From Promethearchaeota archaeon (GTDB taxonomy: Archaea > Asgardarchaeota > Lokiarchaeia > Sigyniarchaeales > SOKP01), in contig JBHLON010000022.1 in NCBI GenBank assembly GCA_048940445.1, positions 1-60,099 on the forward strand: a stretch of 60,099 nucleotides of DNA. Reading direction: 5' to 3'. A program made the position numbers and the translations under genes. A model generated the notes under the pieces. It was given only the letters and a program-made list of their open reading frames with translations. It made no database searches and had not been told where the DNA came from. Positions 9,486 through 46,125 of the stretch are shown one piece after another; within the stretch, counting starts at the first letter, position 1, and every line of letters starts with the position of its first letter.

Positions 9486-10229
9486 CTATCTTAAAATTTT
9501 TAGTAATTCATCATAGGAACCAAGCTCTTGCCTAATATTATGATAAATTAACCCCTCTTCTGGTTTACCTTCGAAACCTGCTTTTCCATTATTTAGAAAT
9601 AACATTTTATCAGCCCAATTTTCAACAAAAAAGAGATTATGAGTCGTAAAAAGGATTGTAATATCATTCTTTTTCCTTAAATTCTCTAAAATACTCAAAT
9701 GACTATAAATTGATTTAAAGTCAAGATTAGCAAAAGGTTCATCCAAAATCAATAATTTAGGTTTCATCACTAAAATCCCAGCTAAAGCAGCTCTTTTTTT
9801 TTGCCCCCATGATAATTCAAAAGGAGAGAATTCCTTATATTCAGATAATTTTACAGCATCTAAAGCCCAATCGACTCTCAAATTTACCTCTTCCTCATCT
9901 AACTTTAAATTCCGAGCTCCAAAACTAACATCTTCTCCAATGGTTGGAGCAAAGAGTTGATCATCAGGATTTTGGAATAAAAAACCTATTGATTTTCTTA
10001 TTTCCCAAAGCTGTTTCTTATTTCTAGTTAAAAGCTGATCGAAAATTTTAATGTTTCCTGATTTTGGTTTTAATAATCCTACTAATAGTCGCAAGAGGGT
10101 GGTTTTTCCAGAACCATTATTTCCAATTAACACATAAATAGAATTCTTTTCTACTTTTAAGCTAATATCATTTATCTGAAATCCAGAATTATATTCAAAA
10201 TTAAGACTTTGAACTTCTATTGCAGAAAT
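9486..10229 (-). CDS. cbiO: ECF Co/Ni transporter ATPase; start extended to ATT at 10229
   Basis: Frame continues 32 codons upstream of the ORF-track GTG (ISAIEVQSLNFEY..INDISLKV..GNNGSGKT); FQNPDDQLF, LSWGQKKR, LDEP. Confidence 0.88.
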   Translation of the reverse strand: MSAIEVQSLNFEYNSGFQINDISLKVEKNSIYVLIGNNGSGKTTLLRLLVGLLKPKSGNIKIFDQLLTRNKKQLWEIRKSIGFLFQNPDDQLFAPTIGEDVSFGARNLKLDEEEVNLRVDWALDAVKLSEYKEFSPFELSWGQKKRAALAGILVMKPKLLILDEPFANLDFKSIYSHLSILENLRKKNDITILFTTHNLFFVENWADKMLFLNNGKAGFEGKPEEGLIYHNIRQELGSYDELLKILR

Positions 10230-11023
10230 AAATTAACAACTCCCAAATAAATTTGTTCTAAATTTATAAAATAAACTAAAAAAATAACAATGCTTAAAGT
10301 TAAAAGAATCAAGATATAATCATAGATTTTTAATTTTCTCGCAGCAAACGTAAGTTTTCCATTAAATCCTCTCATTTTTAAGCTTTCATATAGCTTCTCA
10401 CTACGCTCCATATTATTCACAATATTTTTTCCCATTATGTATCCGTGTGTTTTAAGTCTCTGCCAGAACTTTGCTGTATTTTTACCTCTTAATTCTTGAG
10501 CGTCTAACACTTTTTTATTAGAAGTTGCGAGGATTGGCAGATAATGAAACATAATTACTATACTTCCTATGATAAATGAAGGAATAATTCTAATTTTAGA
10601 TATAGCTTCTATAAATTCAGAATAGGTTAGTGAAGAAAAAAATGTAAGGAATGTAAAAGTTGCACCAATAATCCTGAAAAATAAAAGTAATGCTATTTTT
10701 AATCCTTCTAAATAGATATTTAGAATTATACCTATGTTTAATTGAAATATTATAGTATGGCCAAAATAGAAGGGTAAAAAAATACAAATAAGGAGTAAAA
10801 AAGGTATTAGAATCTTTAATCTTGAAATAACCTTTAGCAAATGTAAATTGAAAAAAATGTTGATACAAATTACAATAAAAATGATGGTTATGACTAAGTA
10901 TATATTATTAAGTACTAAAAATGGTAATACTAATATAAATGGTATAAGAAAACGTATTATAGGGTGGAATCTGTTGAAGAAATTTTTCTCATTTTCAGTT
11001 TTGAACGGTAATTCTGGTTTCAT
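10217..11023 (-). CDS. cbiQ: ECF transporter transmembrane T component
   Basis: Hydrophobic; AQELRG and SLKMRG coupling motifs. Confidence 0.85.
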   Translation of the reverse strand: MKPELPFKTENEKNFFNRFHPIIRFLIPFILVLPFLVLNNIYLVITIIFIVICINIFFNLHLLKVISRLKILIPFLLLICIFLPFYFGHTIIFQLNIGIILNIYLEGLKIALLLFFRIIGATFTFLTFFSSLTYSEFIEAISKIRIIPSFIIGSIVIMFHYLPILATSNKKVLDAQELRGKNTAKFWQRLKTHGYIMGKNIVNNMERSEKLYESLKMRGFNGKLTFAARKLKIYDYILILLTLSIVIFLVYFINLEQIYLGVVNLFLQ

Positions 11024-11073
11024 TAATCCATAACCTAATAGTAATCGTAATAATACTTCTTTCTAAATTAATC

Positions 11074-11093
11074 GTATTATTAAAAAATAATAC
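11074..11093. promoter_or_regulatory. Inverted repeat GTATTATT-N4-AATAATAC in the divergent cbiQ/cbiM promoter; possible metalloregulator operator
   Basis: Perfect 8-bp arms; AT-rich, so chance is not excluded. Confidence 0.35.
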
Positions 11094-11162
11094 TAAATTA
11101 TAAATAAATAATATTCTTAAATTTATAAAATTAAATATTTCTAATATTCAAGAGGTTATAAC

Positions 11163-11834
11163 ATGCATATTCCTGATGGAGTATTGGATCCCATAACATT
11201 TATAATTCTTTGGGTCATAGTAGTTCTTATTATGATATTAGGCTATTTTAAGATGGGAAAGATTTTTCAAAGAGAAGATTCTGAGAGACTTGTACCTTAT
11301 ATTGGCGTTTTAGCAGCAGTAATTTTTGCATTTCAATTTGTAAACTATCCTATCCCCTGGGGAACATCGGGTCATTTAGTTGGGGGAACTTTAGTCGCCG
11401 TAATTTTAGGACCTTGGGCTTCTTTGATAGTTCTATTTCTTATCCTTGTTATACAGAGCTTATTTGGAGATGGGGGTATTCTAGCTTTAGGAGCAAATGC
11501 TTTCAATATGGGAGTTATAGGAGGGATTGTTGGATTTTATTTAGTGGTATTTTTCACAAGATTATTAAATAAAACGTCTCTCAAAAAAGAAATAAAAGTG
11601 ACTATATCTACTGCAATCGGATCTTATCTATCCATTATTCTTGCCTCTTTTATGTGTGGGATTGAGATTAGTATTGGGGGAATTATGCCAATTGGAATCT
11701 CAATATCAACAATGGTTTTTTGGCACTTGTTTATTGGTATTGGGGAAGGGATTATTTCTGCTTTAATTATTTTCTTTATCTACAAAACGAAACCTGATTT
11801 TATAACAACAGAGGCAATTCTTGGGGTTGATTAA
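11163..11834 (+). CDS. cbiM: ECF Co/Ni transporter S component
   Basis: MHIPDG N-terminus, GTSGHLVG, GDGGI, GIGEG. Confidence 0.92.
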   Translation: MHIPDGVLDPITFIILWVIVVLIMILGYFKMGKIFQREDSERLVPYIGVLAAVIFAFQFVNYPIPWGTSGHLVGGTLVAVILGPWASLIVLFLILVIQSLFGDGGILALGANAFNMGVIGGIVGFYLVVFFTRLLNKTSLKKEIKVTISTAIGSYLSIILASFMCGIEISIGGIMPIGISISTMVFWHLFIGIGEGIISALIIFFIYKTKPDFITTEAILGVD

Positions 11835-11840
11835 ATAATT

Positions 11841-44514: not shown

Positions 44515-44636
44515 TATTTGATATTAATATATAATCCTAGTCAAATATTTTGAAAGTCTATTTTCAAAAATGGTCATTAATGAAAATATATGATTAAAAA
44601 TTTAAAAAAAAAATAGAGATATATTTACGTAAATAT

Positions 44637-44808
44637 TTAATCTGATATCTTTTCAAAGAAGCTTTTATCGACACCACATACCAGGTTTAGTTGGAGATCA
44701 ACAAAAACTTACTGGGCAAACCCAATCATCGGGTAGATCTTCCCATTTTGTGCCTTCAGCTTCTTCGTCATAGATATATCCACACGCACCACATTCATAC
44801 TTAGCCAT
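44637..44808 (-). CDS. Rubredoxin, two exons (44808-44710 and 44678-44637), 46 aa after splicing; absent from ORF track
   Basis: [33 protein letters not shown] + [13 protein letters not shown]; the second CxxC is split by a 31-nt insertion. Confidence 0.9.
44679..44709 (-). other. Candidate 31-nt bulge-helix-bulge intron in the rubredoxin mRNA
   Basis: CCAG/CUGG 4-bp helix with 3-nt bulges UA^A and UA^U, inner stem GUUU/AAAC + GUUG/CAAC, outer stem UUGC/GUGG; standard cuts restore the frame. Confidence 0.82.
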
Positions 44809-44882
44809 ATAAATTCAACCTTTTTATTTTATATGTCTTAATTGAATATTTATTAAAAATATTAATCTAATATTCTATAAAT

Positions 44883-45968
44883 ATGAAACTATATCAATTA
44901 GGCAATAAATTTAGCTTTAATATGATTTCTTATGAAAAAGAAGGAGATTTTCGAGAATTTGACATTTTAAGAGGATTTGCAATAATATTTGTTGTTATTA
45001 TACATACTTTCGGTTTAGTTTACCATTTTAATGAAGGATTAGAGTATCTACTTACTTATGGCACTTTATTTACTATAGCACAATCAGCTGTGCCAATATT
45101 TCTTTTTATTTCTGGATACTTCTTACGATTCAAATATATGAATGATCGATCTTTAAAATCAATATTTCGAGCTAGATTTATAAAGATAATCCCACCATAT
45201 CTACTTTTTTCTGTGATTTATATTCTATTTAATAACTGGAAATACCAGCAAAATATTAGTGTTTTGGAAGGCCTTTATAAAATATTGAGTTTTTCAGCAG
45301 AATTTCATTTCTGGTTTATAGGTTTAATAGTTTTCTTTTATTTATTTTTTCCATTAATTAATATATGTTTTGAACGAAGTAAAAAGAGAAACTTTTTATT
45401 AGGTTCATTTGTTTTACAATTAACGTGGATTGTTTTTGAGATTTATATAAATAATGAATTTCTATTTAATCCAGAACTACAGGTCGCAATGTTTTTTGTC
45501 AAAAATTCTATTTTTTCGTATATTTTCTATTTTGTTTTAGGTATGTACATTGCCGAGAATTATAATGAGATTAAAAATAAGTTGATCAAAAAAAAATATT
45601 TTTTTGTAGCAATTACAATCTTTTTACCTTCAGTATTCACTGTTTTTTACTTTATCATGAATTTATGGTATTTTAAATTAATAACTTTGCCTATAAGTAT
45701 CCCAGCAATATTAATATTTTATGTAATCAGCTTAAAGTTAAAAAAGAAAAATTTTGGTGAGATATTTAGATTTTTTGGAAGATATTCGTATGGTATATAT
45801 TATATACACCCATTAATCACTAGTTTATTAATTAATATATTTCTAATTGGAGCTTTCTTTTACTTAACATTGTTTTGTAATGTATTGCTTATAAGTTCAA
45901 TATTAATCTATTTTATTAGCCAAATGCCTTATAGCAAATTTCTAATTGGAAAAATTCGGAAACCATAA
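44883..45968 (+). CDS. Acyltransferase family 3 membrane protein
   Basis: DILRGFAI..VVIIH, VPIFLFISGY, HFWF, YSYGIYYIH. Confidence 0.9.
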   Translation: MKLYQLGNKFSFNMISYEKEGDFREFDILRGFAIIFVVIIHTFGLVYHFNEGLEYLLTYGTLFTIAQSAVPIFLFISGYFLRFKYMNDRSLKSIFRARFIKIIPPYLLFSVIYILFNNWKYQQNISVLEGLYKILSFSAEFHFWFIGLIVFFYLFFPLINICFERSKKRNFLLGSFVLQLTWIVFEIYINNEFLFNPELQVAMFFVKNSIFSYIFYFVLGMYIAENYNEIKNKLIKKKYFFVAITIFLPSVFTVFYFIMNLWYFKLITLPISIPAILIFYVISLKLKKKNFGEIFRFFGRYSYGIYYIHPLITSLLINIFLIGAFFYLTLFCNVLLISSILIYFISQMPYSKFLIGKIRKP

Positions 45969-45987
45969 CTTAATTCCTTTAATAATT

Positions 45988-46125
45988 TTATTCTTTTTTA
46001 ATAAAAAAGTGCTTTGAAGCCTTGCATTTAGGGCATTTGAAATCATCATTCAGTTTTTCAAAACTAGGCTGGTTTTCTCCTTCAATTAATAAATAATTAC
46101 ATCTTTTACAACGATATATTGAGAT
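45988..46125 (-). CDS. Rubredoxin-like protein, 45 aa, ATC start; absent from ORF track
   Basis: (M)SIYRCKRCNYLLIEGENQPSFEKLNDDFKCPKCKASKHFFIKKE*; GGAGGTG SD 6 nt before ATC. Confidence 0.85.
   Translation of the reverse strand: MSIYRCKRCNYLLIEGENQPSFEKLNDDFKCPKCKASKHFFIKKE

Follow-up and report, generated by a model that had tools for sequence, protein, structure and literature searches.

Five intact genes in a stretch of lokiarchaeial DNA probably begin translation at AUU, AUA or AUC. The stretch, which we call the window, spans 60,099 nucleotides (positions 1 to 60,099 of contig JBHLON010000022.1, assembly GCA_048940445.1; Promethearchaeota archaeon, Lokiarchaeia, Sigyniarchaeales). It is contig C21 of a genome of 3.64 Mb, 139 contigs and 30% GC, labeled G000 here; labels of the type G001 denote genomes of relatives. 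We write ATH or AUH for ATT, ATA or ATC, and refer to ATG, GTG and TTG as canonical. From the sequences, we put the probability at roughly 0.87 that all five genes use Shine-Dalgarno (SD)-led, near-cognate initiation at an AUH codon. What carries this reading can be observed directly: the codons themselves, the stops upstream of them, canonical starts at the homologous position in relatives, conservation from one assembly to another and association with SD motifs. The genes, and the motif that precedes each of them, are as follows.

9486 to 10229, minus strand: CbiO/EcfA ABC ATPase gene, ATT start at 10229-10227, 247 amino acids
10240 to 10244, minus strand: SD motif GGGAG, 10 nucleotides before the CbiO ATT
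13643 to 13648, plus strand: degenerate SD-like motif GGCTGA, 5 nucleotides before the eS26 ATT
13654 to 13926, plus strand: gene for ribosomal protein eS26, ATT start at 13654-13656 followed by CCT AAA AAG AGA, 90 amino acids plus stop
24817 to 26472, minus strand: gene for a TPR/alpha-solenoid protein ("SNAP-like") of 551 amino acids, ATC start at 26472-26470
26479 to 26485, minus strand: SD-like motif GGGTTGA, 6 nucleotides before the ATC of the TPR gene
26728 to 26733, plus strand: SD motif AAGGTG, 7 nucleotides before the ThiS-like ATA
26741 to 26950, plus strand: ThiS/MoaD-type ubiquitin-like gene, ATA start at 26741-26743, 69 amino acids
45988 to 46125, minus strand: rubredoxin-2 gene, ATC start at 46125-46123, 45 amino acids
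46132 to 46138, minus strand: SD motif GGAGGTG, 6 nucleotides before the rubredoxin-2 ATC

A preliminary description of the window, made from its letters alone, had picked out these five codons as starts with a stop just upstream and no canonical codon between. All of the positions are borne out: at each site an in-frame stop lies zero to eight codons 5' of the ATH codon, with no ATG, GTG or TTG intervening. We searched for orthologues in 40 relatives, 24 from the same genus and 16 from other families of the order, and noted, for every orthologue found, which codon aligns with the start that had been proposed. These relatives are independently assembled metagenome-assembled genomes (MAGs) from many studies, and the N-termini of their orthologues back the five proposed starts. 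A canonical start occupies the exact aligned codon in some orthologues of eS26, the ThiS-like gene and rubredoxin-2, while CbiO and the TPR gene keep ATH through the genus. Motifs were also scored by a strict SD test, a 4-mer of GGAGGTGA in the start register.

The eS26 protein matches its family profile from the first position onward, with residues 1 to 89 covering positions 1 to 93 of PF01283 (E = 1.2e-14; 55.1 bits, cut-off 27). The upstream in-frame stop is a TAA at 13627-13629, eight codons before the ATT, and in three genomes a TGA stands two codons 5' of the ATT. The first in-frame canonical codon is an ATG that lies 56 codons into the open frame, and in the comparison with an orthologue 37 of 50 residues in the stretch before it are identical. 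Across the genus, G000 included, the aligned start codon is ATT in 13 genomes, ATG in seven and TTG in one; in other families it is mostly ATG, with ATT in one and TTG in one. The motif (A/G)GCTGA is kept at the same spacing in the ATT-bearing eS26 genes of the genus, and other families have GGTGA there.

The ThiS-like protein is a clear match to PF02597 (40.2 bits, cut-off 22.5) and ends in AGGF, one residue after the GG. Its upstream stop is a TAA at 26720-26722. The aligned codon alternates within the genus, being ATA in 13, TTG in seven, ATT in four and ATG in one of 25 genomes (G000 included). Among five outgroup copies listed, two have ATG at the aligned codon, and the other three are less exactly aligned. 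The AAGGTG motif gives a strict SD in register, and AGGTG is kept at the same spacing in most orthologues of the genus.

For the TPR gene, the ATC directly abuts a TAG (26475-26473), and the first canonical codon comes 348 codons downstream. These 348 residues are 62% identical to those of the relative G008 (216/349). None of the 24 full-length copies in the genus, G000 included, has ATG at the aligned codon (ATT in 12, ATC in six, ATA in six), and 23 of the 24 have a stop zero to two codons upstream. Outgroup alignments are too weak for the aligned start codon to be read. Most orthologues in the genus keep GGGTTGA(T) ahead of the start. The label "SNAP-like," which comes from the preliminary description, did not hold up: a Pfam search at E ≤ 0.01 found no SNAP family match, only TPR_12 at 26.3 bits, below its cut-off of 30.1. 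The TPR and ThiS-like genes form a divergent pair (window 24817-26950; loci L081-L085 and L113-L114) that is still adjacent in other families of the order, e.g., on G034:C105 and G037:C592, and this conserved adjacency hints at a functional link.

CbiO matches PF00005 (ABC_tran; E = 1e-31) and adjoins CbiQ. A single TTT codon separates its ATT from the upstream TAA (10235-10233), and the first canonical codon is a GTG at 10133, three residues ahead of the Walker A motif. The CbiO start overlaps the 3' end of CbiQ, whose stop (10219-10217) follows 10 nucleotides after the ATT. Of 20 orthologues in the genus, G000 among them, 18 have ATT at the aligned codon, and one more has an ATT one codon upstream; six have a stop one codon 5' of the ATT, and only one relative has a nearby GTG, two codons upstream. 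Within the SD motif, GGAG is in register by the strict test, and orthologues keep GGAGG or GGGGG. Relatives have Ile, Leu or Val opposite the next ATA (10220), which is thus an ordinary residue, not the CbiO start.

Rubredoxin-2 scores 24.7 bits against PF00301 (cut-off 23). One codon (CCT) lies between its ATC and an upstream TAG (46131-46129), and rubredoxin-2 shares the reading frame of the gene upstream. That gene, a rubredoxin-reductase/rubredoxin fusion at 46129-47496, carries in its final codons the GGAGGTG that provides rubredoxin-2 with a strict SD in register. All three closest genomes have ATH at the aligned codon, with ATC in G000, ATT in G019 and ATA in G017; elsewhere in the genus, 17 genomes carry ATG there and one carries GTG.

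Two further observations concern other rubredoxin genes. Downstream of rubredoxin-2, a third rubredoxin starts with ATT in G017 (L118) and ATA in G007 (L135), in each case behind AGGTGA, and with TTG or ATG in other genomes. Elsewhere in the window, beside a rubredoxin-like gene (40361-40783), a 91-codon open frame on the plus strand (40820-41095) has its first canonical start at codon 61. The homologous frame in G017 and G023 extends upstream without a stop (...HCC(D/E)C...), so that in G000 this may be a split or truncated gene.

The association with SD motifs extends beyond the window. In a homology-free test, we took the codons between each upstream stop and the first canonical codon and scored them for a 4-mer SD. 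In G000, an SD was in register for 112 of 3040 ATH codons versus 350 of 18190 other codons (odds ratio [OR] 1.95, p = 1.2e-8); for other codons made of A and T only, the count was 108 of 7348. The enrichment was repeated in G008 (OR 2.1). The outgroup G038 gave an OR of 1.5 that was not significant, in an underpowered set of 344 genes. In the window, three sites have a strict SD (CbiO, rubredoxin-2 and the ThiS-like gene). Across all AUH starts that were scored, most of those without a strict SD carry a degenerate, SD-like sequence that orthologues keep.

How common are such starts? In the window, three of the 55 open reading frames of at least 90 codons need an ATH start, plus two small genes. 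The preliminary description had proposed comparing orthologue N-termini genome-wide, and we did so between G000 and 451 kb of G008 (~65-70% protein identity; 284 orthologue pairs), counting pairs in which the protein alignment begins at least eight codons upstream of the first ATG, GTG or TTG. By this criterion, 17 of 284 genes in G000 and 14 of 284 in G008 need an upstream start. When the 17 G000 cases were read by eye, 12 were clear ATH starts (seven ATT, four ATA, one ATC), or ~4% of genes. The other five comprise one CTA or ACG where G008 has TTG, two genes that are apparently interrupted in frame and two ambiguous cases. ATH starts with a canonical codon a few residues further on escape the criterion, and therefore AUH starts probably occur in ~4-6% of G000 genes. 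A parallel comparison of G000 with the outgroup G038 yielded only 98 pairs with N-termini that were too diverged, and gave one versus one at a six-codon threshold. We also tried a dicodon mixture estimate of coding-like sequence before the first canonical start, which gave 5.1% for G000, 6.2% for G008 and 8.3% for G038; it was discarded because it had no negative control and was not specific. Altogether, the window count, the 17 of 284 pairs with 12 curated starts and the SD/ATH enrichment support, within the genus, the earlier suggestion that these starts are common in the lineage.

The same suggestion had been phrased more broadly, as a relaxed choice of any AUN codon. It stands for AUH. It does not stand for AUN as such, and beyond AUH there are only rare ACG or CTA candidates. 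In C69 gene 920, G008 has a TTG 5 nucleotides behind AGGTG, and G000 has CTA at that codon, then ACG. Genome-wide, 8 of the 63 ACG codons that precede the first canonical start are in register with an SD, a larger share than for any other codon, which suggests that G000 may occasionally start at ACG. Another position where ATH alternates with canonical codons is the start of the gene at 19916-20449, which is ATG (19958) in the window, TTG in G008 and G002, and ATC in G011 after TGA AAA.

Two genes outside this pattern deserve a brief description. The first, a PurM/AIR-synthase-like gene on a contig other than that of the window, is split by an in-frame insert of 30 nucleotides that contains TAA (C61:8910-8939; L263:610-639). 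The insert, which is not in the G008 orthologue, has a stem-loop (arms TTATGCA and TGCATAA) within a longer helix, and in its predicted fold resembles a tRNA-type mini-intron. C67 gene 758 (strand coordinate ~4675) has an in-frame TAA where G008 has CAA, with 46 of 50 residues identical after it; the gene may be split or a pseudogene, or the TAA may be an error.

The simplest account of these codons is that the ordinary initiator tRNA starts translation at them, led by the SD. Initiator Met-tRNA would pair with AUH through a third-position mismatch, and an SD:anti-SD duplex 5 to 10 nucleotides upstream would keep the AUH codon in the P site. The initiation machinery of the genus would tolerate AUH, allowing ATG, TTG, GTG and ATH to interchange at one start position over evolution, and AT-biased mutation (30% GC) would supply the ATG-to-ATH changes. 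We infer the use of the initiator tRNA, and hence of Met; how efficient these starts are, and what they may regulate, are inferences too.

Some of our results weigh against this reading. We found no CAU tRNA, and thus no initiator, among the 10 to 21 candidates returned for G000 by ARAGORN with and without introns, a whole-genome Rfam tRNA search and two pattern scans; the tRNAs of this genome are intron-rich or not assembled. The motifs ahead of eS26 (GGCTGA) and the TPR gene (GGGTTGA) both fail the strict 4-mer test. The SD link itself speaks for the reading, with a strict SD in register at seven of 14 AUH starts versus 450 of 3078 canonical first starts (~15%; OR 5.8, p = 0.002), but the first of these figures is somewhat inflated by a few curated codon choices that were in part SD guided. 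Finally, the CbiO and rubredoxin-2 starts are located at gene junctions, where coupled re-initiation could act.

Could a dedicated mechanism be at work instead, either an initiator-like tRNA that reads AUH and places Ile first or editing of the transcript that turns the third base into G? ATT, ATA and ATC are indeed all Ile codons, and most of the tRNA set of the assembly went undetected, including any CAU tRNA. However, we have no positive evidence for such a mechanism, and ACG and CTA candidates occur too. Start positions also switch freely with ATG, TTG and GTG, as expected if one initiator serves all. We regard a dedicated mechanism as very unlikely.

For CbiO and rubredoxin-2 only, independent AUH initiation might be replaced by termination-reinitiation coupling or, for rubredoxin-2, by read-through of the TAG. 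The arrangement of both genes invites the idea, with the ATT of CbiO just ahead of the CbiQ stop and rubredoxin-2 in frame with its upstream gene across TAG CCT. Read-through was rejected: in most relatives, rubredoxin-2 has an independent ATG of its own, and its distance from the upstream gene varies. Coupling would still require a start codon, which would still be ATH, and the other three genes follow intergenic regions. This explanation is less probable again than a dedicated mechanism.

It is tempting to let translation begin at the next canonical codon, with the conserved upstream stretch untranslated, so that the proteins are truncated or the stretch is a conserved leader. This is what gene callers produce. 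The public protein for the window CbiO (P0001) has 215 amino acids and begins just before Walker A, compared with 247 from the ATT, and in 66 of the 120 best CbiO homologues the called N-terminus stands ~10 residues closer to Walker A than it does in full-length forms. A few NCBI records do begin at the ATT, rendered as M. These short models show directly, as had been expected earlier, that standard callers under-annotate the lineage, and as biology they are highly improbable. A downstream start would cost the TPR protein 348 of 551 conserved residues, eS26 56 of 90 and CbiO the strands before Walker A, and the stops directly 5' of the ATH codons mark the boundary of the open reading frame at that point. 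From the alignments, the regions before the first canonical codon are predicted to be needed for the fold, given the eS26 profile match from position 1 and the CbiO strands before Walker A.

That sequencing or assembly errors changed ATG to ATT, ATC or ATA has almost no chance of being correct: G000 is a fragmented metagenome bin of 139 contigs, but conservation of the ATH codons across genomes refutes the idea. The same ATH codons recur in 6 to 24 independently assembled genomes per gene. In addition, contigs from two sequencing runs, X1 (~45x) and X2 (~15x), show no difference at the CbiO, eS26, TPR and ThiS-like starts, though both may be source runs of the G000 assembly. Assembly error is excluded because contigs of several runs agree and the codons recur in MAGs from other groups, and the recurrence is the stronger argument of the two.

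SD-led initiation at AUH codons raises the question of the factors that police start-codon choice, among which aIF1 stands out. In the genus, aIF1 itself starts with ATT behind AAGGTTGTGA in all 18 copies found. The start is ATA in genus g5 and mostly ATG, TTG or GTG in the remaining genera. In G000, hidden Markov model, tblastn and protein searches found no aIF1, nor was it found in four other assemblies of the genus, and the aIF1 locus of G019 has no syntenic counterpart in G000. Its absence from the G000 assembly is most likely an assembly gap. The preliminary description had suggested looking for substitutions in the initiation factors. In the relatives' aIF1 copies this lead was not supported: loop 1 of the genus, (K/R)RKWG(R/K), is also found in outgroups, with no obvious fidelity-relaxing change there. 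At loci L190-L215, the main genus copies have a basic C-terminal tail of ~8 to 12 residues that outgroup proteins do not have. A second, divergent aIF1 copy is present in G005 and G007, and one of these is without the tail.

Previous work shows that archaeal aIF1 discriminates against AUU complexes (PMC4705826; PMC6237735) and that archaeal eS26 occupies the anti-SD site at the 16S rRNA 3' end, which is incompatible with an SD duplex (PMC11698992). Because aIF1 rejects AUU, eS26 clashes with the SD duplex, and in the genus both genes start with AUU behind an SD-like site, AUH starts could form a tunable regulon and not simply reflect tolerated drift. The levels of aIF1 and eS26 would then feed back on the synthesis of these two proteins and on all other SD-dependent AUH genes. 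We consider this unlikely on present evidence. As a speculation, the SD-dependent AUU start on eS26 might be self-limiting.

ATT, ATC and ATA are rare initiators in NCBI table 11. In E. coli, two or three genes are concerned, including infC, which encodes IF3 and combines an AUU start with autoregulation, and pcnB, which also starts with AUU. Asgard archaea use eIF1/eIF2-type factors. AUH initiation is a known rare event, and what is unusual here is its frequency. As in infC and pcnB, the real start is an SD-led, near-cognate AUU, and the ATT start of aIF1 in the genus mirrors infC (PMC4705826). In contrast to E. coli, ~4-6% of genes are concerned here, among them one for a ribosomal protein; the factor belongs to the aIF1/eIF1 type and is not IF3, and autoregulation is only an analogy. 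There is a similar parallel with eukaryotic eIF1, another member of the eIF1/aIF1 family whose own mRNA has a weak initiation signal (PMC6237735). However, the weakness there is a poor AUG context, while here it is an AUU codon on an SD-led, not a scanned, mRNA.

Closer to our case is the Asgard tubulin AtubA, for which a "rare ATT start codon" has been described: an upstream ATT, suitably spaced from a ribosome-binding site, restores a missing first beta-strand (PMC13394414). As in the window, the deposited protein of an Asgard gene is cut short and an upstream ATT fits, but the report is a methods remark on one gene, which gives neither a frequency nor comparative evidence and draws no link to aIF1. 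In ribosome profiling of H. volcanii, ~30% of putative alternative initiation sites are near-cognate (PMC7261190). Those are mostly alternative or internal sites, which the authors set aside, whereas in our genomes conserved, essential genes have no possible start other than ATH. In the literature on non-canonical starts in Asgard archaea and Lokiarchaeia, we found only the AtubA remark, and no paper that describes how frequent such starts are, their pattern across genomes or the start of aIF1.

These findings matter for how Lokiarchaeial genomes are read. Prodigal-type callers accept only ATG, GTG and TTG. Because callers allow only these codons, public Lokiarchaeial proteins are shortened or missed: a few percent of database proteins are cut short or absent, including a ribosomal protein, a ubiquitin-like protein and an ABC ATPase. 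Shortened proteins distort the domain and "eukaryotic signature protein" surveys that Asgard work relies on. Acceptance of AUH far above the E. coli rate also makes this lineage a natural system for following how start-codon stringency evolved toward the eukaryotic AUG rule. If the AUU start of aIF1 is regulatory, it would be the third independent case of a self-controlled fidelity factor, after bacterial IF3 and eukaryotic eIF1.

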